Positions 6,677 to 42,404 of a stretch of 61,884 bases of DNA are shown here, one piece after another. Position numbers and translations under genes: made by a program. The stretch's first letter is position 1. Every line of letters begins with the position of its first letter. This DNA is from an uncultured Gammaproteobacteria bacterium (GTDB lineage Bacteria > Cyanobacteriota > Vampirovibrionia > Gastranaerophilales > UBA9971): contig CAZLCO010000007.1 of NCBI GenBank assembly GCA_964558005.1, forward strand, positions 1 through 61,884, read 5' to 3'. The notes below the pieces were generated by a model. The model was not told where the DNA came from and did not search any database. It worked only from the letters and a program-made list of their open reading frames with translations.

Positions 6677-6722
6677 TGTCATTGCGAGAAGCGACCGCAG
6701 GGAGCGACGTGGCAATCTATCC
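6677..6722 (+). repeat. Long CGTC-type palindrome, left end of cassette 1
   Basis: TGTCATTGCGAG-(variable hairpin)-GCGACGTGGCAATCTATCC. Confidence 0.88.
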
Positions 6723-6754
6723 GAGGAGAGATTTAAGCCTAGCACCGCTACACC

Positions 6755-6781
6755 CATCACCCTGAACTTGTTTCAGGGTCT
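6755..6781 (+). repeat. Short 27-nt palindrome, inner left end of cassette 1
   Basis: CATCACCCTGAACTTGTTTCAGGGTCT; inverted partner at 7931-7957. Confidence 0.85.
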
Positions 6782-6800
6782 GATTAATAGAGGATAACAT

Positions 6801-7955
6801 ATGGATAAGTATAAAATTAAATATATTTTTTCTTTTGATGGTTTAGAAATGGAACTACCTTGTAGTTTTTTGTTAAAAAAATCTATAGTAACGTATAAAA
6901 AAGACTTCAAAGGAACAGAAATAGTATTCACACTATATAATCCAAAACCAACTGAGCCTATAGATGAAGATAGTCATATACATATTGTTAAAGATAAAGG
7001 TCATGAAGGCGGTCCATTATCTATGAAAGGTGAAGATTTTGATTTAAAATCAGCGATAGGTTTTATAGAAATTAATAAATGGGAACAAGAATTAGATATA
7101 ACATTTGAACTTGAAAAAGAAAAAAATTTTTGTTTTGAAGTAGAATCGGAAATTTTAAACTTTATAAATGAAGATATAACAGCAAATTTAAATAATTGGC
7201 TTTCAATATTACAAGATAATTTTTTCAAAAGTAATTGGTTATCCTTACCAAAATTTGTCTTTAAAAAAAATGACCAAAGGCCTATTCAAGATGAAAATAA
7301 TATCAGTCATATTAATTTTACTTGTTATAAAAATGAAGAAAAAGTAGTCGGCCCATGTGGAATATTTAGTGTTAAATGTAATGTTATTGTAAGGGATATA
7401 AAATCAAGCCTTACTACTTTTGATGAAACATTAAACAAAGCAATAAAGGATTTTTTAGATAATATTGAAGATAAAAAACATGAAATATATACCCCTCGAG
7501 AGCTTCTTCTTTTAGCTGACTATGAGAGGAAAATAAACAGGTATAAACTTGCTTTATTATTAATGGCTATGGCTGTAGAAATTTCTGCCAAACTTGTTAT
7601 TGAAATATACGGAGAGCAAATTCATAAATACTTTTTATCGAAAAAAGTAGAAATTTCAATATTTAATTTAATAAAAGACGTTATGCCTGACATAATAAGT
7701 AACAATGATTTTAATTCATTAGATAAATTAAATGTAAAGCTAGACTTATTAGAGCAATTATTCATGATAAGAAATAAAATTGCACATGAGGGTAAAACTT
7801 ATTATCAAAAAAATGAAAAAAAACGTTTTATCGAAAACGAAAGTGAAATTTTAGACTATTTTAAATTTTCACAAGATTTTGTTGATAATAAAATTCCCAA
7901 AATAATAGATTTAATAAATGATAACCGTAAAGATGCTGAAACAAGTTCAGCATGA
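6801..7955 (+). CDS. AT-rich protein with C-terminal HEPN-like domain (putative RNase/defence)
   Basis: ALLLMAMAVE helix followed by RNKIAH (RxxxxH); AGAGGA RBS; much AT-richer than neighbours. Confidence 0.7.
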   Translation: MDKYKIKYIFSFDGLEMELPCSFLLKKSIVTYKKDFKGTEIVFTLYNPKPTEPIDEDSHIHIVKDKGHEGGPLSMKGEDFDLKSAIGFIEINKWEQELDITFELEKEKNFCFEVESEILNFINEDITANLNNWLSILQDNFFKSNWLSLPKFVFKKNDQRPIQDENNISHINFTCYKNEEKVVGPCGIFSVKCNVIVRDIKSSLTTFDETLNKAIKDFLDNIEDKKHEIYTPRELLLLADYERKINRYKLALLLMAMAVEISAKLVIEIYGEQIHKYFLSKKVEISIFNLIKDVMPDIISNNDFNSLDKLNVKLDLLEQLFMIRNKIAHEGKTYYQKNEKKRFIENESEILDYFKFSQDFVDNKIPKIIDLINDNRKDAETSSA

Positions 7956-7957
7956 CG
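7931..7957 (-). repeat. Short 27-nt palindrome, inner right end of cassette 1; contains the gene's TGA stop
   Basis: AGATGCTGAAACAAGTTCAGCATGACG; 22/27 identical to the left copy, with compensatory stem changes. Confidence 0.85.
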
Positions 7958-7976
7958 TAATTGTTTACATGAAACA

Positions 7977-8043
7977 CTGGATAGATTGCCACGTCGGGCC
8001 CGCCCCGCCGATGGCGGGAACGGGAGCCCTCCTCGCAATGACA
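7977..8043 (-). repeat. Long CGTC-type palindrome, right end of cassette 1
   Basis: CTGGATAGATTGCCACGTCG...CTCCTCGCAATGACA, inverted relative to 6677-6722. Confidence 0.88.
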
Positions 8044-8059
8044 AAAAGGAAAAAACATC

Positions 8060-9169
8060 ATGCCAAGAACTCCAATACTGCAAACTCGCCGGGATGCCTG
8101 GATCGAAGTTGACCTCGGCAGCGTCGAGCACAATATAAAAGCCCTTAAATCCAGGCTATCCCCCGGAACAAAACTGCTGGCGGTTGTCAAGGCAGACGCA
8201 TACGGCCATGGCTCAACCACGATTGCTCCGATACTGGTAGCGTCCGGGGTTGACATGCTGGGCGTAGCCTCGGTGGACGAGGGTATTGAATTAAGAGAGG
8301 CGGGCATAAACATTCCCATACTTGTGCTGGGGGCAACACCCGATTGGGCTGTGTGTTCAGCGGTAGAAAATGACCTTGAGCTTTCTATATTCGCACAGGA
8401 GCATATAAATGCCTGTATTTATACATATAACAGATTAAACATAAAGTCAAAAGTTCATATTAAAATTGATACGGGCATGCACAGGATAGGTATTCCTTAT
8501 AAACAGGCGCAGGGTTTTATAAAAGAGGTACAGGATACAAAAGAAATAAGTCTGCAAGGTATTTTTTCTCATCTTGCCTGTGCGGAAAAGCCTGAAATAA
8601 CTATGAAACAAAATCAGGCGTTTAACAGTCTTATAGAACAGGTGGAAAGCAGGGATAAATTAAGTATTCACCTTGTTAATACAGCGGGCATGCTGGATTA
8701 TGAACAGATGCATTATGATATAGCGAGAGTGGGAATCGGTATTTACGGACTGATTCCGGGGTTCAGGCAGGCAATGGGCCTCAAAGGCAGAATAACATAT
8801 ATTAAGGAAGTGCCGGAAGGTTGCGGAATTAGCTATGAATATAGTTATGTGACAGACAGGCCAGCCAAAGTCGCTACAATACCTGTTGGTTACGCTGACG
8901 GCGTGTCAAGAAATCTTTCTAATAAGATTTGCGGAATATTAAAGGGCAAAAAAGTAAGCCAGATAGGCAATATAACAATGGACCAGATGATGTTCGACAT
9001 AACGGGGGTTGATGATGTGCATACGGGCGACATAATAACCCTGCTGGGAGAAGCGGACGGGGAGTGTATTGCTGTTAGTGAGTGGGCAGAAAAATTAAAT
9101 ACAATAAATTATGAAATTACATGCCGTCTGAAAGTAAGGCTTCCTCGGGTCTATACAAGAAGTAATTAA
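8060..9169 (+). CDS. alr: Alanine racemase
   Basis: AVVKADAYGHG PLP lysine, KIDTGMHRIG, GYADG, ITMDQ. Confidence 0.97.
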   Translation: MPRTPILQTRRDAWIEVDLGSVEHNIKALKSRLSPGTKLLAVVKADAYGHGSTTIAPILVASGVDMLGVASVDEGIELREAGINIPILVLGATPDWAVCSAVENDLELSIFAQEHINACIYTYNRLNIKSKVHIKIDTGMHRIGIPYKQAQGFIKEVQDTKEISLQGIFSHLACAEKPEITMKQNQAFNSLIEQVESRDKLSIHLVNTAGMLDYEQMHYDIARVGIGIYGLIPGFRQAMGLKGRITYIKEVPEGCGISYEYSYVTDRPAKVATIPVGYADGVSRNLSNKICGILKGKKVSQIGNITMDQMMFDITGVDDVHTGDIITLLGEADGECIAVSEWAEKLNTINYEITCRLKVRLPRVYTRSN

Positions 9170-9174
9170 ATATA

Positions 9175-9202
9175 TCAAGCAAATTTAATTTATTGCCGAT
9201 AA
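9175..9202 (+). promoter_or_regulatory. Sigma-28 (FliA/SigD)-like promoter upstream of clpC
   Basis: TCAAG-N15-GCCGATAA. Confidence 0.45.
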
Positions 9203-9250
9203 TTAATATCAATTGTAAAATTATGTTAGGAGACAATGTAGAAAGAAAAA

Positions 9251-11728
9251 ATGTTTGAACGATTTACGGAAAAAGCAATAAAAGTAATTATGCTGGCACA
9301 GGAAGAAGCCCGCAGGCTAGGGCATAACTTCGTCGGCACAGAGCAAATCCTTCTTGGCTTAATAGGCGAAGGTACAGGCATTGCCGCTAAGACCTTAAAG
9401 GCTATGGGTGTAAACCTTAAAGACGCCAGGGTAGAAGTGGAAAAAATTATAGGCCGCGGCTCAGGTTTTGTGGCGGTTGAAATACCTTTTACGCCAAGGG
9501 CTAAAAGGGTGCTTGAACTGTCATGGGACGAAGCCAGACAGTTAGGCCATAACTATATCGGCACAGAACACCTCCTGCTCGGGTTAATAAGAGAAGGAGA
9601 AGGCGTTGCCACCAGAATACTGGAAAATCTAGGAGTTGACCTGAATAAAGTAAGGAGCAACGTAATAAGAATGCTCGGCGAAACCCGCACAGGCGCCCCG
9701 ACTGCCTCGGCAACAGGCGGCAGGAGCAAAACGCCTACCGTGGACGAGTTCGGCATTAACCTTACCCAGGCCGCACAGGAGCAGAGGCTTGACCCTGTTG
9801 TGGGAAGGGAAAAGGAAATTGAAAGACTTATACAGATACTCGGCAGAAGGACTAAAAACAATCCTGTGCTTATAGGCGAGCCGGGTGTAGGTAAAACAGC
9901 TATCGCAGAAGGTCTTGCCATAAGAATAATCAATAATGAAGTACCTGAATTGCTTGAAGATAAGAGAATTATTCAGCTTGACATGGGTATGCTGGTCGCA
10001 GGTACCAAATACAGGGGCGAATTTGAAGAACGCCTAAAGAAAATTATGGATGAAATAAGGGGCGCAGGAAATGTTATCCTTGTAATAGATGAAATGCATA
10101 CCCTTATAGGCGCAGGTGCGGCAGAAGGGGCAATTGACGCTGCGAATATACTTAAGCCTGTACTGTCAAGAGGTGAGCTGCAGGTAATCGGCTCTACCAC
10201 ACTGGATGAATACAGGAAGCACGTTGAAAAAGACGCTGCCCTTGAGCGTAGGTTCCAGCCTATTTATGTTGAACAGCCTTCTGTAGAAGAGACAATAGAG
10301 ATTATGAGGGGCTTAAGACAAAAATATGAAGAGCACCACAAGTTAATCATTACGGACAGTGCTATAGAATCAGCTGCGAAACTCTCAGACCGTTATATTA
10401 CCGATAGGTTCCTGCCGGATAAAGCTATTGACCTCGTTGACGAGGCAAGCTCCCGAGTAAGACTGCGGGCCAGCTCGCTTCCCCCTGAAGGCAAAGAAAT
10501 AGAAAAAGAGCTTAAAGGCGTTATTAAAGAAAAAGAGCAGGCCATCAGAAATCAGGAATTTGAAAAGGCAAGTCAGCTCAGAGATACAGAAGCTGAGCTC
10601 AAGGATAAAATCCGTGAAATCAGTCAAAAATGGAAAACTGAGCAGGAAGCAAATAAAGCATACGTAACAGAAGAAGAAATTGCCGAAATTATAAGTACAT
10701 GGACGGGTGTACCTGTCACCAAGCTGACAGAAACAGAGACCGAAAGGTTGATGAAGCTTGAAGAACTTCTGCATAAAAGAGTTATCGGTCAGAATGACGC
10801 CGTTGTTGCTATATCAAAAGCTATAAGGCGCGCAAGAGTTGGGCTTAAGAGTCCTAATAGGCCGGTGGGCAGCTTCTCGTTCTGCGGACCTACCGGTGTA
10901 GGTAAAACTGAACTTGCTAAAGCACTGTCAGAAGCAGTATTCGGTTCTGAAGATAATATAATAAGAATAGACATGTCAGAATATATGGAAAAGCACGCCG
11001 TAAGTAAACTTATCGGTTCTCCTCCGGGATATGTCGGATTTAATGAAGGCGGACAGCTTACAGAAGCTGTAAGGCGTAAACCTTATTCGCTTGTTCTGTT
11101 TGATGAAATTGAAAAAGCTCACCCTGACGTGTTCAATATGCTGCTGCAAATCCTTGATGACGGTAGGTTAACTGATTCAAGGGGCAGGGTAGTTGACTTT
11201 AAGAATACAATAATAATAATGACAAGTAACGTTGGGGCTAGAAACATCGAGCATTCCAACAAACTGGGCTTCTCTGTAGGCGAAGATGAGAGCAAGGATA
11301 GATACGAAAAAATGAAAGAAGTCGTGATGGAAGAAATGAAAAAAGCTTTTCGTCCGGAATTTCTTAACAGGCTTGATGATATTATAGTATTCTCACACCT
11401 CACCAGGGAAGAAATCAGGCAAATTGTGGATGTTATGCTTGCTGACCTTATTAAGAGACTTCAACTTCAGGAAATATCAGTTGAAATACCTGATGACGTC
11501 AAGGATCACCTTGCCAAAGAAGGCTATAGCCAGGCTTACGGCGCAAGGCCGCTGAGAAGACTTATACAGAAAACCATTGAGGACTGTATGGCGGAAGAAC
11601 TGCTTACAGGGCTGGCAAAAGAAGGCGATACAATTCTTCTCAAGCTTGAAGGAAAGAAAATTGCTTTTGAGAACATAGGCAAACAGGCTGATAAAAAAGA
11701 AGCAAAAAAAGCCGATTCTGAAGTTTAG
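9251..11728 (+). CDS. clpC: ATP-dependent Clp protease ATPase subunit ClpC
   Basis: [32 protein letters not shown]; GEPGVGKT and GPTGVGKT; UVR linker; LGF loop. Confidence 0.98.
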
Positions 11729-11745
11729 CCAGCGGGATAAGTTAA

Positions 11746-12027
11746 ATGACAGAAAAAAAAATAGACCTTGATGAACTGAAAAAATTGATGGTGAACCCCA
11801 GAGTGGGCGAAATACTCGTACAGCATAAAAAAATTACGGTTTATCAGCTGGCGGATGCACTGGAAGAACAAAAGATAAATAAATCCCCCATTGGACGAAT
11901 TTTAATTGATAAAGGTTATATCACGGAAAATGAGCTTGTTGAGCTATTATCCTTGCAAAATAATATTGATAAATTATTAAAGGATAGTTACAACGAAATG
12001 GAAAAGCTCAAAGGTGACAATACATAA
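11746..12027 (+). CDS. Stand-alone MshEN-type (c-di-GMP-binding) protein
   Basis: Two 24-aa motifs RVGEILVQHKKITVYQLADALEEQ and PIGRILIDKGYITENELVELLSLQ with a 5-aa linker. Confidence 0.75.
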   Translation: MTEKKIDLDELKKLMVNPRVGEILVQHKKITVYQLADALEEQKINKSPIGRILIDKGYITENELVELLSLQNNIDKLLKDSYNEMEKLKGDNT

Positions 12028-12778: not shown

Positions 12779-12792
12779 ATATAAATTAGGGT

Positions 12793-13960: not shown

Positions 13961-14032
13961 TCTATACAGGTAAAGAGTAAAATAGCACATAGTTGTGTTG
14001 TTTTACCGGGTAATTAAATAGGAGTATAACTA

Positions 14033-15571: not shown

Positions 15572-15656
15572 GCCCTGGTGGCGGAATGGTAGACGCGCCG
15601 GACTTAAAATCCGGTGAGGCTTAAACCTCGTGCCAGTTCAAGTCTGGCCCAGGGCA
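15572..15656 (+). tRNA. tRNA-Leu(UAA), no intron, CCA not encoded
   Basis: GCCCTGG/CCAGGGC acceptor, CCGGA-CT-TAA-AA-TCCGG anticodon arm, long variable arm, GTTCAAG T-loop. Confidence 0.96.
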
Positions 15657-16527: not shown

Positions 16528-19500
16528 GTGTCGAGAGCGTGCAGTTTATTAGTTATAGCGCTGCTGATAGCATTGAATTGTAATTTGTCTGTCAGGGCAG
16601 CAGACGTATCAACAGAACAGGAACTTCGTGATGCGTTAGATAATGTTGGGACTGACCCCACTATTAACGTTACTTCTGATATTACTTTGTCTTCTGATTT
16701 AACTCTCCCTGATTCTACATATACTATCAACGGCGCTGGAATGAACATTACCACTTATGACGGTGGGGGGCTTGCTGTGCCTTCGAATGTAATTGTTGAC
16801 AATCTGGTTATAGATAATACCACTAATTATATAAACAAAATTATTACTAATGGTAGCGGAGGAGCGATTAATAATACAGGCGGGAATATTATTATCGATA
16901 ATGCGGCTAATTTTAGCGATAACAATGTTACTGGTAACTGGCCCAATGGCATGGGCGGAGCTATTTATAACAATAATGACGCCGAGTTCACTATAAACAA
17001 CGGAGCGACATTTACTAATAACAGCTCTGAATCTTATGGCGGGGCTATTTTTAATGATAACTCAACATTCACTATAAACAATGGGGCGACTTTTTCTAAC
17101 AACAGTACAACTGGTGGCTGGGGTAGAGGAGCGGCTATTAATAACTCTTTTGGTGCCGAGTTTACTATAAACGATGGAGCGACATTTACTAATAATAATG
17201 CTGTCGGTTTCGGCGGAGCTATTGCAAATCAGGCTAATTCTACATTAATCATTAATGGAAGCAGTCTTTTTACTAACAATTCATCTGTTTATGGAGGTGG
17301 AGCTATTTTAAACAACAGTTCCGAACTCACTATAAACGACGGAGCGACATTTACCGAAAATAGCTCTGACGAGGAAGGCGGGGCTATTTTAAACAGTACA
17401 GATGGCAAATTCACTATAAACAACGGGGCTACTTTTACAGATAATTCTGCTGTTGATGATGGTGGAGCTATTTATAATGAGAACTCAATATTTACTATAA
17501 ACGACGGGGCGACTTTTACTAATAACAGTGCAGATGGGGATTGGAGTTATGGCGGGGCTATTTATAATAATAACTCAACATTCACTATAAACGACGGGGC
17601 AACATTTGCCGAAAACAACGCTACATATGGCGGGGCTATTTATAATTATGAAGGATTCTTTACAATAAACAACGGAGCGACATTTACTAATAACAGCTCT
17701 GAATCTTATGGCGGGGCTATTTTTAATGATAACTCAACATTCACTATAAACAACGGAGCGACATTTACTGAAAACAGTTCAGTCTGGCATGCCGGGGCTA
17801 TTTTAAACAGTACAGATGGCAAATTCACTATAAACGGTGGGGCTACTTTTAATAATAATAACACAGTTAACTATAGTGGCGGGGCTATTTTTAACAGTAC
17901 AGGTAGCAAATTCACTATAAACGATGGGGCTACCTTTATTAATAATAGTGTTGGCGGACACGGCGGAGCTATTTTTAACTCTTTGGGCGCCGAGTTCACT
18001 ATAAACAACGGAGCGACATTTACTAATAATAGCGCTGACATGAGTGGCGGGGCTATATACAATTTTCACCAGGATGGATTCGGATATACTAATCCAATTT
18101 TAACTATAAACGATGGTGCGACCTTTACTAATAACAGCGCTGGCGAGGACGGCGGGGCTATATATAACTATGATAACACAACAATAAACCTTATAGCCCG
18201 CACAAATGATGTTACCTTTACCGGAAACACAGCTGGCGGCGTTGATAATGCCGTGCATTTGCACAATACTTCAACAATGAACCTCAATGCCTCAAACCTG
18301 GCGGAAATAACCTTTAATGACGCTATAACAAGCCAAGGCAACAATAATGTAATTAATATAAACGCTACTAATGCAGTAGATGCCGATATACCGGCAGATG
18401 TACCAACAATCGGCAGAATAACCCTCAATGCAGATATGAGCGGATTTGGAAATTCCGCCGGTACAGGCAACAGCGTTAACCTCTAGGGTGGGGAACTCTA
18501 TTTGGGGCCTAACGGAAAATTTTTCGATTCTGTTAACTTTATGGCCGCTTCCGGCTCTACTCTTAACCTGATGAACGGCAGGATAAATTCCGTTACTTTC
18601 GGAACTGCCGATATAAACAATATGAACCTGAAAGTGGATGTGGACCTGCTCTCTAAAACTGCCGATACCATCAAATCAACAGGTGCGGTAACCAATAATA
18701 CAATAACAATAAACGGCATTAATCTCCTGCGCGAAGGCAACGGCTCAGGCGGCTCAGTAAACGTTAACCCTGATAATGATTTTAATGTATCCCTTGCAAG
18801 CGGCGCAAATACGGTTTCAGGCCAGGTATTTAATTACAATGTCTCCAACAATAACGGCTCTCTCTCTTTTGCGAAAAAAGAAATAAACCCTTCGGTACAA
18901 GCCTCGGCTTCTGCCCAGCAGGCCGTCCATATAACCGGTGACAATATTAATAATATTGTTTTCGAAAGGTCAGAGCAGGTTCTGGAAATAATGGACACCA
19001 TTAAATATGTTCACGGGATAGATTACAAATTTGCTAATAAAATGGCTTCAGCAGATGGCTCTGCAGCATATATTTCAGTCTACGACCGCCTTAAAAATGC
19101 CTCTGTTTGGTTCAGGCCTTTCAACAGCATAGAAACACTTGATATATCAAACATGGAAAAAGATGTAAACAGCATTTCCTATGGAGCTGTGGTAGGTTTA
19201 GATACTCCCCTGTATGACCTCAGAAGAGGTTTCTCCGGCCTGTTGAGTTTTTACGGCGGATACTCCGGTGCAAGCCAGGGCTATGCTGATACTGACATAA
19301 CTCAAAATGGCGGCTTTGGCGGCATTATGGGCGCAATTTACAAAAATAATTTCTTTTCTTCCTTAAACCTGAGCGCAGGCGGTTATGGTGTACAAGAAAG
19401 CATTTACGGTTATGGCTCTGAGGACTATGGAATATTTACAACGTCAATAGCCTCAAAAACAGGTTATGTCTTTCATCTCCCCAAACAAATAAGATTGCAG

Positions 19501-20734: not shown

Positions 20735-20816
20735 GGGCGAGTGGCGAAATGGTAGACGCGCTAGTCTTAGGAACTAGTAGGAGACCCCTGTGAGAGTTCG
20801 AATCTCTCCTCGCCCA
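20735..20816 (+). tRNA. tRNA-Leu(UAG)
   Basis: GGGCGAG/CTCGCCC acceptor, CTAGT-CT-TAG-GA-ACTAG anticodon arm, GTTCGAAT. Confidence 0.96.
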
Positions 20817-29547: not shown

Positions 29548-29964
29548 TTATCTCCTTTTATCTAAATATTGCTGTAAGATTAACACAGCAGAAGCAATAT
29601 CAACAAGCCCCTTATTTCTGGAAGGTTTCTTTTTTTGCTCTATGAGTGCTTTTTCAGCAATCCTGCTGGTCAATCTTTCGTCTTCCAGCTCAACATTTAT
29701 TAATATATTTTTTTTAAGTAACTCTAAATAGCATAACACATCTTCTGCCTGAAAGCCTATAGTCCCATCCATATTTTTTGGCAGACCAGCTACAATCAAT
29801 ATAATATTGCGGGTTTCGCAGATTTCTTTAATTTCTTTTATTGAAGCGTTTTCGGGTTTTCTGCTAATAACCCCGAGTGGCTGCGCTGTAATCCCCAGAG
29901 GGTCACTGATTGAAACTCCTATCCGTTTTGTACCTATATCAAGTCCGAGAATTCTCTCTATCAT
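29548..29964 (-). CDS. ruvX: YqgF/RuvX pre-16S rRNA nuclease
   Basis: ILGLDIGTKRIGVSISD, GLPKNMDG, DERLTS, D..SA.LILQ.YLD. Confidence 0.95.
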   Translation of the reverse strand: MIERILGLDIGTKRIGVSISDPLGITAQPLGVISRKPENASIKEIKEICETRNIILIVAGLPKNMDGTIGFQAEDVLCYLELLKKNILINVELEDERLTSRIAEKALIEQKKKPSRNKGLVDIASAVLILQQYLDKRR

Positions 29965-31666
29965 CTGCGCACAATATTTCTATTAATTCCTGTATACTTT
30001 CGTTTTGCTTTTCATCTTCGCCAGCAGACTTGTTTTTTTCTGCTTTTCTTATATTCCAGGGGTTTAATTTCTGTTGTTCCTGGCTGTATAAATTATATTC
30101 ATAAGTTATCAGGCCTTCAATAATAGTCCTTCTTATTATTCCCCTGATAAATTTGTTATTTACCAGATCAAAATTTTTATCTGAAGCTATTGAAACAGCC
30201 AGCGAGGCCGCAATATTCCTGAAATGTTCAAGCTCGGTTATGTTAAAGAGTATAGCTATGTTGCGAAGCCTGTTTTTATAAACTTCCCTTACTGTTGAAT
30301 CAAAAATAACAGGCAATAATTTATTAATTACCAGTTCAATTTCATTTTTTAATTTATCGGTATTTTTAATATATAAATTTTTATTTTCAGCAAGTTTTAA
30401 AATAATGTTTTCTATATATTCCTTTAGAGGTTCATGGTCATCATTTTCAAAAAACCACTTATCAAAGTCGGGGAATTTATGCAAATTATCGCTCTGGGCT
30501 ATTACTTCCTTGTCCGCCCATTTGTTCAGGAGTTCTTCGCTTCCGTAATCGCAGTATTTTATGTCTTTAAGTGCTGATTTCCATGCAATATACTCATAAG
30601 GTATGGCGGCATTGTTTTTCTTGTTTATTTTTTCTGCCTGCTCAATTATGTATCTGCAGTATTCAGGAAAAACCAGGAATCTGGTTGATTTATCCTGAAA
30701 TCTCTCTATAATTCTTTTGAAATCTTCCCTGCTTATGCCATAGAACCCGAAGCAGTCCAATATGCCGTAAACATCGTTTATTATCAGGTTCATCATTAAA
30801 ATATCACCGTTTGGCTTTATTCTGCTGACGATAATAGCCTGGTTGCCCATGCCGTCAGGGATACAGGTATGGCATTCATAAACTTCTGAAACATTTGTTA
30901 TTTGTTCATTATTCTTATAAGTTTCAATATTTTCAATACCTATTCCTGCCAGTTTGAGTTTATTAAGGCTAATTTTAGCTTTTTTGCATAGTTTTTCGTC
31001 ATTGGAATATTCAATAAAGTCTTTTAATACAGGGACCGCTTTGGGTGAGCGGGCTTCTCCCAGCACATCTATTAAAAATTCGTCCATATGTGAAGCCAGC
31101 CTGGATTCCAGCGCCGGGGCAATCACGTTAACAATATATTCACAGGAATAGTCTTCCCTGAGTGATTGTACGAGGTTTAGTTGTTCAGTATCCGGCAGCG
31201 AAAACAAAAAGTCGAGAAAGTCTATTTGCGCCTCCGGGTTTATTGAGGCCACTTCCAGTAATTTTTTGGTTTCCTTATCCACAATAGACTTCGGGTCGTC
31301 AAGGTAGTTTAAAAATTCTTCCGGGTCTGTGTTGTCGCCGAGGTTTTTCAGTGTAATACCGGCTATATCCTTAACCTCATCAGGCGTATTGGGCGACTTA
31401 ATATAAGACCAGAGAATATCCTGTACCTGGTTGAGGGTCCCGAACTCCTGTAAAAACAGGGAAATAATCTGCCCTTTTTGATAGTTTGAGTGTCCTAGTT
31501 CTTTTGCCAGTATTTCAACAACATACTGTCTGTTTTGGATTGAGCCCAGTTTTGATAAATGCTTAATCTGTTCTTCCCGTGACATTTCATCAATTGAACC
31601 GATTTTTTCCAGCATTAAAGTAATTTCAGCTCTTATTTGCAGTTTGGAAAGTTCTCTAGGTCTCAA
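29939..31666 (-). CDS. HEAT-repeat-like hypothetical protein
   Basis: Long helical ORF with LGEARSPKAVPVL; in operon with ruvX. Confidence 0.7.
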   Translation of the reverse strand: MRPRELSKLQIRAEITLMLEKIGSIDEMSREEQIKHLSKLGSIQNRQYVVEILAKELGHSNYQKGQIISLFLQEFGTLNQVQDILWSYIKSPNTPDEVKDIAGITLKNLGDNTDPEEFLNYLDDPKSIVDKETKKLLEVASINPEAQIDFLDFLFSLPDTEQLNLVQSLREDYSCEYIVNVIAPALESRLASHMDEFLIDVLGEARSPKAVPVLKDFIEYSNDEKLCKKAKISLNKLKLAGIGIENIETYKNNEQITNVSEVYECHTCIPDGMGNQAIIVSRIKPNGDILMMNLIINDVYGILDCFGFYGISREDFKRIIERFQDKSTRFLVFPEYCRYIIEQAEKINKKNNAAIPYEYIAWKSALKDIKYCDYGSEELLNKWADKEVIAQSDNLHKFPDFDKWFFENDDHEPLKEYIENIILKLAENKNLYIKNTDKLKNEIELVINKLLPVIFDSTVREVYKNRLRNIAILFNITELEHFRNIAASLAVSIASDKNFDLVNNKFIRGIIRRTIIEGLITYEYNLYSQEQQKLNPWNIRKAEKNKSAGEDEKQNESIQELIEILCADDRENSRT

Positions 31667-35428: not shown

Positions 35429-35550
35429 ATCAATATATTAGCAAGATTGGTACATAATAAGTTATTAAAATTTATTATGTACTAGCAATTTTTGGCAACT
35501 TATTGTTTTTATATATATAAGATATAATGTATATATTTGGAGAAAATTAA

Positions 35551-36120: not shown

Positions 36121-36123
36121 TTC

Positions 36124-36312: not shown

Positions 36313-36393
36313 GTTTTTCCTCCTTTCGCAAACATTATATCATCTTTAAGTGGTATAATAGTTCTCAACAGGAGAGCTCAAAAGGAACAAAAA

Positions 36394-39300
36394 ATGATTT
36401 GCCCTAAGTGCAAGGGGAAAAATGCCGAAGATAATAATGTTTGCAGTCACTGTGGCTTTAAGCTGAAAACAATCTGCCCGAGATGTAAGCACCCAAACAC
36501 ACTTGGCCAGCCAAAATGCGCAAATTGCAACCTGACTCTTATAAGGTACTGCTCTAAATGCAAAGCGCCAAATTTTCCGCAAGCAAAAGAATGCAGGAAA
36601 TGCGGGGCACCGCTCCTGAAAAAAAAGGTTGAAGTTAAAAAGGAAGAAAGGCCTGAGCCTGTAATAAAAAAAGAGCCCAAGCCGGAAGTAAAACCGGAAG
36701 TAAAACCGGAACCAACACCCCGGTCTGCTCCTGAACCAGTTTCCAGGAAGCCTCTACCGGAAACAGAAAATAAAGCACAGGAACAGGAAGAAAACTTTGG
36801 CGCTGAATTAAAAAGAGAAGTCACAAGGGAAGAGGCACTAAAAGCACTTACAAATATACTTTCAAAAGCCGATAAAGGCTATGTAATAAGTCTTTGCGCG
36901 CCTGAAGGGACAGGTAAATCTATAACCCTTACCAATACCGCCCAGGCACTGGGCGAGGAGAAAATTACCTGGCTCAGCGGTACCTGCGAGCCTGTAAAAC
37001 AAAATGTACCTTTTGCTTTTTTTAAGGATGTTATAACCAATCTTTTCGGGTTGCCTATTATTTCACTTAATGATAATGAAATAAAAAAATCAGTCAAAAA
37101 AATTCTTGAAACAACACTCGAACTAACAGACCAGTCTGTGTTGGACAACATTTATAAGATTGTCCTGAACGAAGGCGGGGGGCAAAAAGAATCTATTCAT
37201 AAGAATTTTGCTGATATCCAAAAATCAATTCAGGAAATAATTATTGCACTGAATAAAAAAACAAAAGTGGTTTTAATAATAGATGACTTTGAATATATTG
37301 ATAAAGCCTCATTTGATTGTATAAAATACCTGATGAAGAAGAATTTCCTTGATAATAAAAACTTCCTCATTATAACTCACACCCCTGCAACAAATACGGC
37401 AAAACTTTTCCCAACGGAAATATCCCTGCAAAGAATGGTTATTTTAATGGTTAAGCCGCTTACTACGGCAGAACTTGATTCAATATTGCTGAGCATGCTT
37501 AATAGTCAGAATGTTTTGCCGGAGGAGCTAAAATCAAAAATATTCAGGCAAGCTAAAGGCCTGCCGCTTTATGTGGAACAGGCGCTGTGGTATTTGTTCC
37601 AGCAGGGAGCAATTATTCCTGAACAGCAGGGCCTTGTGTTCAATGAACAATTTAAGAATGTTGATATTAATCCTGATCTTGCAGGGTTGTTTATGCAAAG
37701 AGTTGCGCTTGTTGAAAGGACATCCCCTGATGCCTTAAAGACAATTCTTTATGCTGCGTTATTCGGCTATAAATTCATTCCAAAACTGGTTGAAACAGCA
37801 ATGGAAATAAAAGAGGAAGAAATGCAGCAAATAATGCAGCTTCTTATAAACAGCGGTATTTTTGCTGTATATGACCAGTATAACTTTGGGTTCAAGCATA
37901 TAAGCATGTGGAAAATCATCATGGAGAGGGCTTTTAATGATGATATTATAAAAGAATTAAGCGCAAAAGCACTGGCTGTCTCAAAAAATCACCCCAGTAT
38001 TAAAAGTGCACAAATTATAAAACTTGCTGAATACGCTGAAGATAACAAGAACCTCTTTGAGTATTATAACAATGCCGTGCAGGAATCTTTAAACCTCGGC
38101 GATACGCTTTCATATACAGCGAATCAGGTGAAAATGATTGAATTAATAACTAAAACCAATTCCCCGGAAAAGGAAAAAGTTGCGGCTAAACTTTCAATTA
38201 CAGAGCAAATAGGTAAGGTCAATTATGAATCAAACCCTACCATTGCGATAAATTACCTGAAAGAGAGTATAAAAAAATATCATGAGCAGGAAAATAAAGT
38301 TAAAGTAATTGAGCTTACCGGTTACCTGTCAAGGAGCTGTGAGCTTGCGGGGAATTATCAGGGAGTGCTTGATTGCTCTGAACAGGCATTAAAACTGGCA
38401 ACAGAAAAAGAGGAAAATCCGGCTGAAGTTATGCTGATCAATTTTTCAAAGCTCGATTCCTTTTTTAACCTTGGCAGGCTTGAAGAAACAATAATGACAG
38501 CAGAAAACGATGTCCTCCCTTCTCTGGCGGCGGTTATTTCCAAAAATCAGATATTGCCCGGGTTAAGCAAGGATGAAATTAAGGACATTGAATACCAGAC
38601 GGAGCTAACGCTGGCTAAGGCCCTTGTTTTCCAGGGAAATATAAAGGCCGAAGAGTTATTGAAAAAAATACAGGCCCGTGCCGAAAAAGAAAAACAGGCT
38701 GAATTTGAAATAAAAGCACTGCTAAATCAGGCACTAATGCTTACAATACAGGGTGATTTGAGGTCAAGTGAGGAAATACTTGAGAAAATACTCCAGAGGG
38801 ATATTACCAGTGAAAATTCAGATCAAATCCAGCTTGAGTGGTTGTTTGTAATGACCCTGTGGCAAATGCTGGACGGGAATCTGGAAAAAGCACGGTCAAT
38901 CTGTTATTCTGCACTTCCTTTATCTAAAGAATGTAAGGACCATAATCTTTTTGCATTATTGAAACTTTTGAACGGATTTTTCTACCAGCATTTTCAGCAT
39001 ATTAACAATGCAATTGCGATCTATGACGAAGTTGCACATTATTGCTCAGAACATAAAATGGCGACTGGCGCATTGTTTTCCTGGTATCTAGCAGCAGAAG
39101 CCGAGTTGCAGACCGGTAACCCTGAAAGAGCCGAGGAGATAGCCCAGAATGCTCTTGATATTGCTAAAAAACCAAACATAAATAATTTTATGGCTGCTAT
39201 ATTACTGTCAAGGCTTGTGGCAGAAATAAAAATTGTAAACGGCGACTTTGAAGGAGCGCAGATTTATATTGAAACAGGCATAGAAATTGCGGAAAAGAAT

Positions 39301-39543
39301 AACCTGTCATATCCTCTTGTACATTTATACCTGACTTTTGGAAAAATTTATCATGAAAACGCAGCGGTAAAAGAGGAAAATAAGGACGAAAGCTCAAACT
39401 ATGCCCATAGATTGTACACAAAGGCCTTATCTCTCGCTGAAAAGATAGATAATCACTACCTTATAAGCAGGATAGAAAAAGAAATACACAACCTGCAGAC
39501 GTTTTGTAAATTGTCAGGGATAACGCTGAGCGCAGAGGCTTAG
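36394..39543 (+). CDS. Multi zinc-ribbon / P-loop ATPase (AAA_16, STAND-like) / TPR protein
   Basis: Six CxxC pairs, Pro/Glu linker, APEGTGKS, LIIDDFE, GLPLY, C-terminal TPRs. Confidence 0.8.
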   Translation: MICPKCKGKNAEDNNVCSHCGFKLKTICPRCKHPNTLGQPKCANCNLTLIRYCSKCKAPNFPQAKECRKCGAPLLKKKVEVKKEERPEPVIKKEPKPEVKPEVKPEPTPRSAPEPVSRKPLPETENKAQEQEENFGAELKREVTREEALKALTNILSKADKGYVISLCAPEGTGKSITLTNTAQALGEEKITWLSGTCEPVKQNVPFAFFKDVITNLFGLPIISLNDNEIKKSVKKILETTLELTDQSVLDNIYKIVLNEGGGQKESIHKNFADIQKSIQEIIIALNKKTKVVLIIDDFEYIDKASFDCIKYLMKKNFLDNKNFLIITHTPATNTAKLFPTEISLQRMVILMVKPLTTAELDSILLSMLNSQNVLPEELKSKIFRQAKGLPLYVEQALWYLFQQGAIIPEQQGLVFNEQFKNVDINPDLAGLFMQRVALVERTSPDALKTILYAALFGYKFIPKLVETAMEIKEEEMQQIMQLLINSGIFAVYDQYNFGFKHISMWKIIMERAFNDDIIKELSAKALAVSKNHPSIKSAQIIKLAEYAEDNKNLFEYYNNAVQESLNLGDTLSYTANQVKMIELITKTNSPEKEKVAAKLSITEQIGKVNYESNPTIAINYLKESIKKYHEQENKVKVIELTGYLSRSCELAGNYQGVLDCSEQALKLATEKEENPAEVMLINFSKLDSFFNLGRLEETIMTAENDVLPSLAAVISKNQILPGLSKDEIKDIEYQTELTLAKALVFQGNIKAEELLKKIQARAEKEKQAEFEIKALLNQALMLTIQGDLRSSEEILEKILQRDITSENSDQIQLEWLFVMTLWQMLDGNLEKARSICYSALPLSKECKDHNLFALLKLLNGFFYQHFQHINNAIAIYDEVAHYCSEHKMATGALFSWYLAAEAELQTGNPERAEEIAQNALDIAKKPNINNFMAAILLSRLVAEIKIVNGDFEGAQIYIETGIEIAEKNNLSYPLVHLYLTFGKIYHENAAVKEENKDESSNYAHRLYTKALSLAEKIDNHYLISRIEKEIHNLQTFCKLSGITLSAEA

Positions 39544-40379
39544 AATAATCCGTTTTCAATAAATTTGTTTATATATTTAATGGTCTCAGGGTGCCTCATA
39601 ATAACAATATCAGCCCCGGAAACCAGCATAGAGCTTGCGGTAATTGTTTCCCAGGATAATGCCCTTGTTTTAAAGTCGCCCCATTCCAGCGGTACGTTAT
39701 CTGATTTGGCTTCTTTTGTTTTCCATGCCTCTTCTCCAACAAAAGTGACAATCGGCATATTCAGCATTGCGTCACCGTCTTTGGCGGCAATTTTTATCCG
39801 TTCAATTATGCTGTAAGCGTAATCGAGCCCATACCCTAATCCGCCGGTGTTAGGGTCAACAAGGATTTTGTCCGGGTCAAAGCCAATCTCTGTAAGCAAT
39901 ATATTTAACTGTTTCGTTAAATTAATATCTATTGGTGTCCTTGCAATAATATTATGCCCGCATTCGTTTATGGCAGGGGCTATTTCTTTGTAATTTTCTT
40001 CTTCCACTACGCCTATGGTGCATTTTCTGTCAGCAACCTGGGCAAGCTCAGGCAATAATTGGGCATCTAAATCACGTCTGAATGTACCGGTCAGTATGAG
40101 CGGCAGATTGGTTAGCTTTAGTATTTCTTTAAGGTATTCCTTGCTTTGCTTGATATCTTCACTGTTAAACTTTATGTTTAGGGCGGAAAAGCCTGTTTTA
40201 TCGGCTATTCTGACGCATTCCAGCGTGGAGTACAGCTTGTTTCCCCATGCCTGTTTTAAGAGTTCGGGGTAATTTAAAGGTATATTTGTTAAAATTTCGC
40301 AAACAGCGATAGGAGCATTGTCACCGCCGGTTTTCAGCCCATTTAGGTCTACTTCTCTTATTTTCAATTTGGTTTGCAT
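39540..40379 (-). CDS. AcsD/CdhD (corrinoid Fe-S protein small subunit) homologue
   Basis: PIDINL.KQLN, DP.TGGLGYG.DY.YS.IERI, EAWK.KEA, WE..TA, GADI..MRHP. Confidence 0.85.
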   Translation of the reverse strand: MQTKLKIREVDLNGLKTGGDNAPIAVCEILTNIPLNYPELLKQAWGNKLYSTLECVRIADKTGFSALNIKFNSEDIKQSKEYLKEILKLTNLPLILTGTFRRDLDAQLLPELAQVADRKCTIGVVEEENYKEIAPAINECGHNIIARTPIDINLTKQLNILLTEIGFDPDKILVDPNTGGLGYGLDYAYSIIERIKIAAKDGDAMLNMPIVTFVGEEAWKTKEAKSDNVPLEWGDFKTRALSWETITASSMLVSGADIVIMRHPETIKYINKFIENGLF

Positions 40380-40406
40380 TTTAAAATTTTACCTTAAAAT
40401 AGTATT

Positions 40407-41246
40407 ATGCAACAATTCAATCCTAAAAATCCCGAAGAATTTAATTTTTCTGAAATACTATACACCAAAGCCGAGTGGGTCGCCACAATCACCATAAACC
40501 GCACAGAGGTCTACAATGCGTACAGCATAATAACCCTGCAGGAAATGGCAGCCGCATTGCAGGATGCGACATGGGACGATAGTATTGCCGTAATAGTTAT
40601 TACAGGTGCAGGGGACAAGGCATTCTGCACGGGCGGGGACGTTAAGGAATATGCGTCCGAGTTTATCCCGCAGCCGCCGGAGTTCTGGAAGTGGATGGGC
40701 GTATTTACGCAGTTCCACGACCTGCTGCGTAACTGCGGAAAACCAACAATAGCAAGGCTAAATGGCATGGTCGTCGGCGGGGGGAATGAAATAAATATGT
40801 CCTGCGATTTGGCTGTAGCCGCCGAGCACGTAACCATAAAGCAGGTCGGAACAAGCGTTGGCAGCGTTGCAGCGGGCGGGGCAACACAGTTTCTGCCGCT
40901 TATAGTAGGCGACAGGCGGGCAAGGGAGATATTACTTCTCAATGAGCCGATATCAGCGCAAAAAGCTCTTGAGTGGGGGCTGGTAAACTGGGTTGTGCCT
41001 AAAGAAGAGCTGGACACAAAAGTCAGTGAAATCGCTGAAAAGCTGGTGAACAAGTTCCCTGAATGTACCCGCTACACAAAGCAGCAGCTGAACTTCTGGA
41101 AGGATTTCGCATGGAATATGACTATAGGACACGCAAAGGACTGGTTGAGTCTACATTTTGCTTCGGAGGAGGTCAAAGAGGGCATGCAGGGGTTTGTTGA
41201 AAAGCGCAAGCCTGATTATGTAAAAATTCGCAAAAACAAAAAATAA
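40407..41246 (+). CDS. Crotonase of the MenB/BadI/Oah (C-C bond forming or cleaving) type
   Basis: TGAGDKAFCTGGD.KEY, NGMVVGGGNEI..CD, Q.G..VGS...GGAT.FLP. Confidence 0.82.
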   Translation: MQQFNPKNPEEFNFSEILYTKAEWVATITINRTEVYNAYSIITLQEMAAALQDATWDDSIAVIVITGAGDKAFCTGGDVKEYASEFIPQPPEFWKWMGVFTQFHDLLRNCGKPTIARLNGMVVGGGNEINMSCDLAVAAEHVTIKQVGTSVGSVAAGGATQFLPLIVGDRRAREILLLNEPISAQKALEWGLVNWVVPKEELDTKVSEIAEKLVNKFPECTRYTKQQLNFWKDFAWNMTIGHAKDWLSLHFASEEVKEGMQGFVEKRKPDYVKIRKNKK

Positions 41247-41456
41247 TTTTTGATTTTACGAAAAAAATAGTTTTTAAATTTTTTATTTTTTAAAACAACT
41301 TTTGTTATTTTATTTAAATTTTTTATCAATGCTATTGTACCATATTTTGGTTCTTTTTTCAATCGGCGGGGTGGGAAAGTGTTGGGCGGTAATGGTTTTA
41401 GGGATTGCGACGACGGGTGTGTTTTGGTTTTTTCATGAATTTTTGATTAAATTTCC

Positions 41457-41494
41457 CCTTGTTTTACCCTTGTTATTTCCTTGTCGTTTTCTTG
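41457..41494. promoter_or_regulatory. Four (C/T)CTTG direct repeats with 11-bp period
   Basis: CCTTG at 41457, 41468, 41479; TCTTG at 41490. Confidence 0.5.
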
Positions 41495-41583
41495 TTTTTG
41501 TCTGTAATTTTATCTTGTTTTTTGCTTTTTTTGGGGTGCTTAAGGCACGTTCTTATTGGGTTGGAAGGTGATGGGCGGGGATT

Positions 41584-41606
41584 GGGGGTTAGACAACCCA
41601 CCCTAC
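41584..41606 (-). repeat. GTAG-tagged REP-like hairpin
   Basis: On - strand GTAG-GGTGGGTT-GTCT-AACCCCC. Confidence 0.55.
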
Positions 41607-41624
41607 GGATTTCCAGCTGTTGTG

Positions 41625-41664
41625 TGTCATTGCGAGGAGCGAAGCGACGTGGCAATCTGTCCAG
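41625..41664 (+). repeat. Long CGTC-type palindrome, left end of cassette 2
   Basis: TGTCATTGCGAGGAGCGAAGCGACGTGGCAATCTGTCCAG. Confidence 0.88.
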
Positions 41665-41717
41665 AGTTTTTAATCAGCAATATTTTGTTTTATAATTTCT
41701 AAAATGAGGACTGTTTA

Positions 41718-42359
41718 ATGAAGTTGGATGAAACAATACTAAAGTGCTTTGAAGAGCTAGTAAGCAAAGCAAACACGCCGGAATATTTTTTTGATGAAGA
41801 TGATAATGAAAAATTCTATGAATGGGCAACTTCTGTAATAAGTTTGTTTCAAAGAATATTTAATTCAAATGATATTCAACTTGTAAATTTTATAGAACAA
41901 TATAATGAATTTAAAGTAAGTCCATTTGAGCATGAACAAAAATTCAAAAATTGCAGAGGAATTTTAAATTCTGCATACAATGACTACAAAAACGGTTATC
42001 TGTTCAAAGTTAAAACCTTAATCAGTGCAGAAGTACTGGATAATGTTATTGAACAAGCCGAAGAACTTTATAAAAATAATTACAAAGAAGCAGCCTGTAT
42101 TATTGCAGGTGTTGCGCTTGAAACAACGCTAAGAAAATTATGTGAAGATAATGGAATTGAGTCTGCGAAAATGGATAAAATGAACGCTGATTTGGCTAAA
42201 GCAAATAAATATAATAAATCAAAACAAAAACAAATAACTGCATGGGCAGGGTTGAGAAATGACGCTGCTCATGGAGATTGGGACAGCGCAAATGATAATC
42301 AGGTCAAGCCAATGATTGACGGTGTAAATGCTTTTATGGCTGATTATTTAAACCCATAA
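41718..42359 (+). CDS. AT-rich HEPN/DUF4145-like protein
   Basis: A.EL.....KEAACIIAGVALETTLRKLC, WAGLRNDAAHG (RxxxxH); GAGGA RBS. Confidence 0.82.
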   Translation: MKLDETILKCFEELVSKANTPEYFFDEDDNEKFYEWATSVISLFQRIFNSNDIQLVNFIEQYNEFKVSPFEHEQKFKNCRGILNSAYNDYKNGYLFKVKTLISAEVLDNVIEQAEELYKNNYKEAACIIAGVALETTLRKLCEDNGIESAKMDKMNADLAKANKYNKSKQKQITAWAGLRNDAAHGDWDSANDNQVKPMIDGVNAFMADYLNP

Positions 42360-42365
42360 TTGGGA

Positions 42366-42404
42366 AGATTGCGGCGTCGGGCTAAAGCCCTCCTCGCAAT
42401 GACA
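42366..42404 (-). repeat. Long CGTC-type palindrome, right end of cassette 2
   Basis: AGATTGCGGCGTCGGGCTAAAGCCCTCCTCGCAATGACA, inverted relative to 41625. Confidence 0.85.

Follow-up and report, generated by a model that had tools for sequence, protein, structure and literature searches.

NTS/SRM-type hairpins in inverted pairs frame single AT-rich genes in a non-proteobacterial genome

Two framed genes in one contig

We analysed a 61,884-nt stretch of DNA (the window), which is the whole of contig C7 of the draft genome G000 (2.39 Mb in 117 contigs, 38.7% GC, 96% complete). At two loci of the window an inverted pair of hairpin repeats encloses a single AT-rich gene, the cargo. A sequence-only reading of the window had proposed this shared architecture and had placed all four internal long-type copies of the repeat in such pairs, and both points are confirmed. 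The exact 12-mer TGTCATTGCGAG occurs at 6677 (+), 8043-8032 (−), 41625 (+) and 42404-42393 (−), and not once in 100 dinucleotide-preserving shuffles; these four copies make up two inverted pairs with one low-GC gene inside each. Allowing up to two mismatches gives seven matches against 3.4 expected, which says little. Each element runs TGTC, ATTGC, a variable inner part, GCAAT, CT and a tail near N-TCCA. The left copy lies on the + strand and the right copy on the − strand at both loci, with the TGTC tags facing outward.

At locus 1, the left long-type hairpin (6677..6718, +) has the outward TGTC tag, an ATTGC/GCAAT basal stem and a CT-N-TCCA-type tail. It is followed by a nested short 'B' hairpin (ATCACCCTGAACTTGTTTCAGGGTCT; 6756..6781, +; DNA fold z = −3.6) and by cargo 1 (384 amino acids; 6801..7955, +), the sole open reading frame (ORF) inside the pair. 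A second B hairpin (7931..7956, −; DNA fold z = −4.7) overlaps the stop codon of cargo 1, and the right long-type hairpin (7983..8043, −), which contains a GC-rich inner stem-loop, lies 16 nt upstream of the start codon of an alanine racemase gene. The two nested copies form a pair of a shorter, perfect hairpin, GTCA-YSCTGAA-CTTGT-TTCAGSR-TCT. At locus 2, the left long-type hairpin (41625..41658, +) is a 34-mer that recurs exactly, save for one Y position, across many phyla. Cargo 2 (213 amino acids; 41718..42359, +), a predicted HEPN-superfamily protein of the RiboL-PSP/DUF4145 kind, is again the sole ORF, and the right long-type hairpin (42366..42404, −) is orthologous to the sbcC-proximal hairpin of the related genome G003. 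The GC content of the interiors is 0.247 at locus 1 and 0.313 at locus 2, which are the 0.2nd and 6.5th percentiles of 800-bp windows of G000 (median 0.389).

The genes adjoining the two loci encode ThrRS, enoyl-CoA hydratase, alanine racemase, ClpC, a STAND-like NTPase, a CdhD-like protein, a crotonase and an SbcC-like ATPase. There is no transposase or integrase among them and no match to PF00589 or PF01797 on the window contig, in agreement with the sequence-only reading.

Hairpins across the genome

Hairpins were catalogued in G000 with four motif patterns followed by a stem-complementarity filter. GTC and CT are built into the patterns; the base before GTC and tail positions +3 to +5 fall outside them and so were freely scored. 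The 92 catalogued hairpins divide into 59 long ('A' type), 26 short ('B' type) and 7 whose stem is ATCCT, and GTCATTGCGAG, with 33 copies, is the most frequent 11-mer beginning GTCA in the genome. The base before GTC is T in 63 copies, C in 23, A in 6 and never G. Among the 66 non-B copies, positions +3, +4 and +5 of the tail are C (50), C (45) and A (45), so that most tails read TCCA, and the basal stem has A as its first base in 64 and T as its second in 65. Basal stems covary (ATTGC/GCAAT 33, ATTCC/GGAAT 10, ATTCT/AGAAT 8, ATCCT/AGGAT 7), with one mismatch in 8 of the 66.

The orientation of neighbouring copies, which the sequence-only reading had singled out as a test, is non-random. At separations of 151-1500 bp, 13 of 14 neighbours are convergent (+−); the remaining one is ++, and −+ and −− are absent. 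At 150 bp or less there are 13 convergent, 3 divergent (−+), 5 ++ and 5 −− neighbours, the tandem pairs being A-B composites at one end of a cassette. Beyond 1500 bp the counts are 2, 11, 3 and 2 in the same order, a divergent excess that is expected from units built of convergent pairs. A second, pattern-free detector (YGTCA, a perfect stem of at least 5, then CT) found 147 sites in G000 and 55 in the reversed genome, and 41 neighbouring pairs within 2500 bp against none in that control. The two arms of a pair have different inner sequences and, often, different stem types. Many of the pairs hold no gene: the 13 convergent pairs within 150 bp are empty doublets.

A separate element of about 200 bp with the ends CTAGTG...CACTAG occurs in three near-identical copies (C5 34340-34550, C23 25810-26020 and C27 31050-31260). 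Its centre is a hairpin doublet of one A-type and one ATCCT-type copy, and it looks like a small doublet-carrying miniature inverted-repeat transposable element (MITE).

Hairpins of this kind also mark the ends of contigs. In G000, contigs C7, C13, C27, C50 and C98 begin or end in hairpin repeats; in the window, a long-type hairpin with an ATTCC/GGAAT basal stem lies at about 17-58 (−), at the contig edge, and any partner would be off the contig. In the related genome G002 many contigs (C27, C38, C50, C87, C97, C100, C146, C307 and others) start or stop within 20-70 bases of a hairpin. Hairpins thus break short-read assemblies, and repeat counts in genomes like G002 are lower bounds.

Identity of the repeats

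Judged by anatomy and gene association, the repeats are NTS/SRM hairpins, with an unpaired YGTC tag 5' of the palindrome, and belong to the CGTC/TGTC-tagged superfamily of repetitive extragenic palindromes (REPs); they do not form a new repeat class. The Neisseria repeat CGTCATTCCCGCGMAVGCGGGAATCYRG (NTS, which includes dRS3) and its relatives (SRM) flank a 94-amino-acid single-domain GIY-YIG gene, ssnA, across phyla (Chenal et al. 2025, PMC11893778). Among CGTC-tagged REPs many have TGTC in place of the CGTC tag, stems begin with AT and tails with CCA are found, and the repeats occur mostly as dimers of opposite orientation, often heterodimers (Di Nocera et al. 2013, PMC3733652). The anatomy of the G000 hairpins fits both the NTS consensus CGTCATTCCCGCG..GCGGGAATC (PMC11893778) and the printed description of CGTC REPs (PMC3733652), and short A-type copies (TGTCATTCCGGGCTTGACCCGGAATCT) have GTCATTCC and GGAATC in common with NTS.

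The likeness to the NTS/SRM-Ssn system extends to the YGTC-tagged hairpin, the GTCATTCC..GGAATC blocks, the C after the palindrome and the hundreds of dispersed, oriented copies, as well as to a small single-domain GIY-YIG gene between inverted copies and a repeat-gene-repeat layout around other genes (PMC11893778). The two differ in three respects. Long-type copies have an extra variable inner segment here; the host is a non-proteobacterium, the nearest named homologues of its nuclease and of cargo 2 being from Gastranaerophilales/Melainabacteria; and the framed genes are single, AT-rich and partly defence-like, whereas surface and virulence genes are framed there (PMC11893778). With CGTC REPs the G000 repeats share the TGTC tag, AT-first stems, 4-5-nt loops in the short types, the CCA tail and opposite dimers. 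They differ in that PMC3733652 found no dedicated enzyme and, in the sections consulted, describes no genes within the dimers.

One count speaks against the assignment. The published degenerate SRM string matches 0 of the 92 catalogued hairpins and gives 15 matches in the genome against 9 in the reversed control. Since the string misses all 92 copies, the assignment rests on anatomy together with gene association. The matches of the SRM string in G000 belong to another subfamily, TGTCACCCCG..GGGGTCT.

This extra subfamily, more fully TGTCACCCCG(C/G)AC-TTGA-..GGGGTCT, lies outside the 92-copy catalogue and has sites at C3 53206, C9 40093, C23 13052, C44 1746, C63 5046, C70 2697 and C84 490.

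Framed nuclease genes

The sequence-only reading had proposed a search for a nuclease or transposase gene flanked by the same repeats, and G000 has three such nuclease genes. Its small GIY-YIG genes, on contigs C39 (15266-15601), C2 (about 29867-30159) and C16 (3875-4153), are 51-57% identical as judged from matches to the C39 copy, and all three are framed by inverted, outward-tagged hairpins. In the C39 protein PF01541 spans residues 5-78 of 111 (E = 6.2e-14), and Tyr, Tyr and Glu are separated by 11 and 47 residues, which is the spacing of the mutated SsnA residues Y6, Y17 and E64 (PMC11893778). Its family counts at least 7984 proteins at E ≤ 1e-8, mostly of 94-98 amino acids with PF01541 as the only domain, and the closest named member comes from a Gastranaerophilales assembly; NCBIfam gave no match. 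We describe the small GIY-YIG proteins of G000 as predicted Ssn-type nucleases and putative members of cd10448.

The association holds among kin. Our comparison set consisted of 41 related genomes including G000, in which a close GIY-YIG match was one with E below 1e-20. A gene was scored as flanked where GTCA, a perfect stem of at least 5 and then C lay within 200 bp with the tag outward, and reversed flanks served as control. For 41 gene copies at 40 loci from relatives, hairpins were present on both sides in 26, on one side in 8 and on neither in 7; in the control no copy was flanked on both sides and a single copy on one. An earlier pass with a stem of at least 6 missed the 5-bp-stem type and scored 9 of 41 as both-sided. 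Close GIY-YIG homologues occur in most repeat-carrying genomes, and, once the exceptions (see below) are set apart, the 15 relatives that lack one have no match to the repeat pattern.

The sequence-only reading had offered a RAYT/HUH or a GIY-YIG enzyme as examples of a mobilizing partner; genes of the second kind are framed in G000, and a RAYT was not found. PF01797 gives no match in this 96% complete genome, and the tag is YGTC rather than the GTAG of RAYT-associated repeats.

What is known of SsnA is summarized briefly. It binds the hairpin only as single-stranded DNA and, in the sole activity tested, makes one cut a few bases upstream; cutting depends most on the three bases before the palindrome and binding most on the C after it (PMC11893778). 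RNA and the reverse strand are not substrates, and RNA is not bound (PMC11893778). The NTS-gene-NTS layout lowers transformation and uptake of the flanked genes in N. meningitidis, and the role of Ssn nucleases outside Neisseria is stated there as open (PMC11893778).

Cassettes and their cargos

About 13 pairs in G000 enclose one AT-rich gene. Ten are of A type, two hold GIY-YIG genes between other hairpin types (C2 and C16), and one lies on C23, with a small repeat element carrying a doublet at its right end. All 13 interiors fall at or under the 8.3rd GC percentile and 10 of them under the 5th, and the nine non-nuclease cargos that were queried are each single-copy in G000. Within the hairpin frame the cargo points one way in seven cassettes and the other way in six; the common cargo orientation proposed by the sequence-only reading thus describes the two window loci and not the genome. 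In 4 of the 10 A-type cassettes (locus 1, C19 and both on C39) the cargo ORF ends in or crosses a hairpin. Symmetric nested layers in the order A+ B+ cargo B− A− are found on C1, C7, C32 and C40, and C39 carries two cassettes in tandem with an identical 14-nt spacer after each right hairpin.

In both of these tandem cassettes (C39 15204-16544) the start codon follows the left hairpin after only 22-25 nt. This is too short for a promoter, and the two genes would need transcription through the hairpin from outside.

The cargos are diverse. That of C1 matches AbiJ_NTD4 (6.4e-22) and PDC-S32 (2.1e-94), and that of C41 matches DUF2971 (3.2e-5) and PDC-S31 (4.4e-17), in each case from Pfam and PADLOC. 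The C66 cargo belongs to the UDG superfamily (3.6e-7) and the first C39 cargo is the GIY-YIG protein (6.2e-14). The cargos of C19, C32 and C40 and the second cargo of C39 fall in no family and appear membrane-like, with hydrophobic N-terminal stretches judged by eye, and the C23 cargo has a weak match to Abi_alpha (0.024) that is under the cut-off. The expectation that the pairs would frame low-GC defence genes is therefore borne out in part: the cargos are low in GC, single-copy and include several defence-type families, but not all are HEPN proteins or recognizably defensive.

Both window cargos carry the RNxxAH motif noticed in the sequence-only reading (RNKIAH in cargo 1, RNDAAH in cargo 2), and within each family this motif varies little or not at all. 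Cargo 2 has 182 homologues at E ≤ 1e-5, the closest named ones being from Gastranaerophilales/Melainabacteria assemblies. In an alignment of 32 family members N181, A184, H185 and G186 are invariant and R180 is present in at least 90%; 23 of the 32 match HEPN_RiboL-PSP (E ≤ 0.01), 15 DUF4145 and 6 HEPN. The AlphaFold model of cargo 2 (pLDDT 89.7) has the HEPN protein 2hsb as its best meaningful Foldseek match, with a probability of 1.00 and a TM score of 0.76 by target length, but an E value of 0.45; a search of PDB sequences with the cargo 2 profile gave no meaningful match. For cargo 1, a word-indexed homologue search returned only the protein itself and an Atlas search only unnamed clusters. 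An exhaustive search of 1.84 billion representatives found 13 relatives, in which R324, N325, K326 and H329 are invariant and the C-terminal domain is HEPN-like; 6 of the 13 match HEPN_RiboL-PSP (E ≤ 0.05). The single-sequence fold of cargo 1 (pLDDT 36.8) is unusable as a model.

When the two families were aligned with each other in hhalign, the whole HEPN domain was covered with a probability of 48.7% and E = 1.8e-4; with just the C-terminus of cargo 1 set against the profile of cargo 2, the probability was 1%. The window proteins themselves are sub-threshold in profile searches (HEPN E = 0.067 for cargo 2 and no match for cargo 1), and PADLOC, Pfam and NCBIfam gave no match above threshold when applied to them directly. 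The motif call nevertheless holds, because its residues are conserved, family members match HEPN_RiboL-PSP and the families align with each other. Both cargos are predicted HEPN-type proteins, distantly related within the HEPN domain, and are putative RNases.

Variation at orthologous sites

Both window sites differ among relatives. At locus 1, between the ech and alr genes, the same-genus genome G001 has 71 bp and no hairpin; in G003 the gap is 818 bp long and holds two other small ORFs, again without a hairpin. At locus 2, the crotonase and sbcC genes adjoin in G008, where the site is empty and without a hairpin. In G003 this site holds a hairpin pair around a 326-amino-acid DUF4062 protein (1.3e-28). 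The sbcC-side hairpin with its outer flank has 81% mean column identity between G000 and G003, and on the crotonase side the alignment takes in the conserved ends of the hairpin, its tail and a TTTTAATC block, beyond which the sequences diverge. The crotonase-sbcC site thus has a conserved frame with swapped cargo, since the hairpin pair is common to G000 and G003 and the cargo is not. Cargo differs at both window sites among G000, G001, G003 and G008, and neither outcome that the sequence-only reading had named as contrary to it, random orientation or invariant cargo, was found.

Of 151 genomes of the order, two carry cargo 2. The copy outside G000 is that of G004, with 65% identity; a hairpin directly follows its stop codon, and a doublet comes next. 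In the 2-kb stretch around this copy no match was found with either the crotonase or the sbcC query, and the G004 crotonase lies on another contig. No target-site duplication was seen at the two filled/empty sites, where divergence of the flanks limits the comparison.

The locus 1 cassette is supported by an independent contig: one from a sequencing run (the probable source run, for which only contigs were used) spans 5918-8782 without a difference. In this, the single run that holds the cassette, no contig skips it; two further runs contain next to none of the window's words. Joints of 6780/6782 to 7931 were considered as traces of excision and rejected, since they have sides of 24-26 letters with different letters between them and are other short-hairpin copies.

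The repeat extends far beyond this order. The 34-mer of the locus 2 left hairpin (with its one Y position) is present in at least 120 stretches from Oscillospiraceae, Patescibacteria, Desulfobacterota, Planctomycetota, Alphaproteobacteria, Nitrospirota, Chloroflexota, Omnitrophota and others. The first 80 of these loci (522 kb, other phyla) contain 262 hairpins against 32 in the control, and 58 of 86 neighbours at 150 bp or less are convergent.

Other features of the window

At 6654-6682 (−) the outward tag of locus 1 reads ATGACA on the other strand and, with TATAAT 17 nt away, makes an 11-of-12 sigma-70-like site facing the enoyl-CoA hydratase gene (start near 6640). This is a single case. 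Each outward tag could give the neighbouring gene a −35-like hexamer; promoter-like sites in the two regions scanned were not enriched over shuffles (10 against 8.5 and 4 against 4.6).

Around locus 2, the crotonase gene is separated from the left hairpin by 380 bp that are otherwise without explanation. The crotonase ORF extends into a zinc-ribbon tail in G003 and G008, and this tail is missing from the window crotonase. At 41458-41500 lies a T-rich repeat of 25-42 nt (..CCTTGTCGTTTTCTTGTTTTT..) with eight matches on seven other contigs, among them C10, C19, C3 (two), C14, C4 and C63; some of these adjoin hairpins, for example near C3 82219 and the C4 61661-61738 doublet. The SbcC-like gene (42441-44783) stands directly downstream of the locus 2 cassette, an adjacency that may be coincidence; E. 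coli SbcCD takes out hairpins formed by inverted repeats (PMC3733652).

Elsewhere, Rfam at gathering threshold yields from the window a large bacterial SRP RNA at 2114-2376 (147 bits) and two tRNA genes (15572-15656 and 20735-20816), and no match at the hairpins. At 16950-18200 there is a long array of coding repeats of 81-174 nt (..FTINNGATFTNNS..GGAI..), which we take to resemble those of polymorphic-membrane-protein or autotransporter-type proteins.

Discussion

The hairpin pairs, together with the flanking housekeeping genes, are probably sites at which accessory genes enter, leave and replace one another through recombination. We observed the identity of the repeats, their pairing, the properties of the cargos, the association with nuclease genes and the variability of the sites. 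Cutting by the local nucleases and the route of recombination are inferred. The Ssn-type nucleases of G000 would bind single-stranded hairpins and cut a few bases outside the tag. Since the tags face outward, a bracketed gene would receive one cut per strand, placed at the outer margin of the hairpin that is 5' on that strand, and excision of a single strand by cutting alone would be impossible. Such cutting may alter the recombination of incoming or replicating single-stranded DNA at bracketed genes, as in N. meningitidis, and shared hairpins with conserved flanks would make intergenic slots where accessory genes come, go and swap, as proposed for dRS3/NIME. The competence genes ComEC and DprA are present in G000. 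The recombination-site reading is favoured because we found no target duplications, repeated cargo or cassette-skipping contig, and know of no joining activity in Ssn nucleases.

Several observations weigh against it. Recombination at these sites is deduced from three-genome comparisons at two sites, and the relatives are kin, so that counts across genomes are without independence. As DNA, two of the window's four long-type copies fold no better than shuffles (z = +0.29 and +0.59), and in these two only covariation supports the stem. The repeats and the nuclease do not always coincide: G007, G011 and G035, which are 80-88% complete, have repeats and no close GIY-YIG match, and G001, G021, G023 and G026 have the gene and no match to the narrow repeat pattern. 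At 30 loci with repeat matches in five relatives we found mostly empty doublets and two filled pairs, with GC contents of 0.29 and 0.33. Lastly, at the 80 loci from other phyla, neighbours 151-2500 bp apart are not enriched for convergent pairs (12 of 69), and only 1 of these 12 has a clearly low-GC cargo, an ssn-type gene. The framed AT-rich cargo may therefore be a feature of this lineage and not of the repeat family at large, in what is a small sample.

The closest precedents are neisserial. It has been a hypothesis since 2007 that dRS3-type repeats promote the exchange of genes next to or between them (Bentley et al., PMC1797815), and in the dRS3/NIME arrays GC-rich inverted repeats alternate with low-GC spacers, much as here. 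Minimal mobile elements of Neisseria place differing small cassettes at syntenic sites between conserved genes, an arrangement found at both window sites. The NIME spacers are non-coding and of 19-214 bp, whereas whole genes lie between the repeats in G000, and the arrays are stated to be unseen outside Neisseria (PMC1797815). Exchange in Neisseria rests on natural transformation, which in G000 is suggested only by ComEC and DprA.

A hairpin-gene-hairpin unit might instead be a non-autonomous mobile element that the GIY-YIG nuclease excises or copies and inserts at new sites, with empty doublets as MITE-like derivatives. We consider this unlikely, although several features would suit it. The authors of PMC11893778 remark that the hairpin-nuclease-hairpin layout resembles an insertion sequence; the empty doublets are frequent, the layers on C1, C7, C32 and C40 are nested symmetrically, the tandem C39 cassettes have identical spacers, the G004 copy of cargo 2 is hairpin-flanked with neither of its G000 neighbours found alongside, and the 34-mer is identical across many phyla. 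Against these stand the want of target-site duplications at comparable filled and empty sites (within the limit set by their divergence), arms that are usually unlike in type, queried non-nuclease cargos that are all single-copy, and a run in which no contig skips the cassette. Moreover, Ssn has been shown only to cut and not to join, one strand per end (PMC11893778), and the NTS-gene-NTS layout lowers integration in N. meningitidis. Cargo-bearing pairs are not enriched at the 80 loci from other phyla, either, where the one low-GC case is ssn-type.

Three known kinds of element can be compared on the same grounds. A MITE or transporter insertion sequence does not fit, given the mismatched arms, the single-copy cargos and the lack of target duplication at the two sites with diverged flanks. 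REPIN-RAYT systems share with G000 the inverted hairpin doublets, an enzyme gene in one or few copies flanked by its own repeats, and recognition of hairpins in single-stranded DNA; they differ in the tag (GTAG against YGTC) and in the enzyme, as G000 has no Y1/HUH transposase and its enzyme is a GIY-YIG nuclease. Integrons share single-gene, often promoterless cassettes and imperfect palindromes that would fold in single-stranded DNA, and the two-cassette array on C39 is in tandem. Here, however, each gene has two inverted sites where an integron cassette has one direct attC; the sites are dispersed, and a common promoter is absent. No IntI-type recombinase was found by the cassettes inspected; the 10 PF00589 matches of G000 sit elsewhere, none on the window contig. 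An integron was therefore rejected, and the dispersed-integron mechanism drawn in the sequence-only reading is unlikely.

That reading had gone further and cast the paired palindromes as capture sites mobilized in trans. The differing arms, the single-copy cargos and the absence of both a duplication and an excision contig tell against this. In its strongest form, outward-tagged pairs would be true cassette boundaries, and the single-stranded-DNA GIY-YIG nuclease with its hairpins a scattered system for capture and exchange of single defence genes, a proposal we regard as unlikely. Were it true, the system would be a nuclease-built functional analogue of an integron, with HEPN, AbiJ, DUF2971 and DUF4062 cargos and without a tyrosine recombinase, and it would supply the long-sought 'dedicated enzyme' logic for CGTC-type REPs.

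It is more improbable still that the hairpins work in transcripts, as terminators, stabilizers or insulators, the pairing then reflecting selection for a hairpin at both ends of a gene. The hairpins do sit tightly at gene ends, to the point that an ORF ends in or crosses one in four of ten cassettes, the B-type copies fold with high stability (z −3.6 and −4.7), an RNA-level role has been proposed for REPs in general (PMC3733652), and the ATGACA-TATAAT site points toward enoyl-CoA hydratase. But sites with a stem and then a T-run coincide with no hairpin in the two regions scanned, promoter-like sites are not above shuffles there, and SsnA did not bind RNA (PMC11893778). The frame also ignores cargo direction, yet its asymmetric tag and tail are conserved; since frame and cargo orientations are independent, the same RNA would be sense in some cassettes and antisense in others. 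Chance or an assembly artefact we dismiss: five contigs beginning or ending in repeats show the assembly to be affected, but four exact 12-mers against none in shuffles, no control matches in 41 genomes, an independent run contig unchanged over 5918-8782 and the same architecture in other genomes leave it next to no room.

Returning to the recombination-site reading, the pairing of repeat and nuclease is already published (PMC11893778), and the idea of exchange is close to the Neisseria dRS3/NIME proposal of 2007. What seems new is the one-gene, AT-rich, partly defence-like cassette in a non-proteobacterial lineage, together with a conserved frame whose cargo has been swapped. We found no report of Ssn repeats framing defence-type cassettes in the searchable literature, which leaves aside subscription journals and supplements; genes of this kind may be listed in PMC11893778, Supplementary Data 2-4.

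If the hairpins do not guide exchange, G000 adds one host to a repeat-nuclease pair already described in print. As it stands, the genome is a compact test case in a distant lineage, with about 13 one-gene cassettes, three cognate nuclease genes and a site in two genera where the frame is common and the cargo swapped. No family is known for cargo 1 or for four membrane-like cargos. Should the hairpins guide exchange, this would account for the identical 34-nt sequence across many phyla, and the pairs would be a cheap marker for new single-gene defence candidates.

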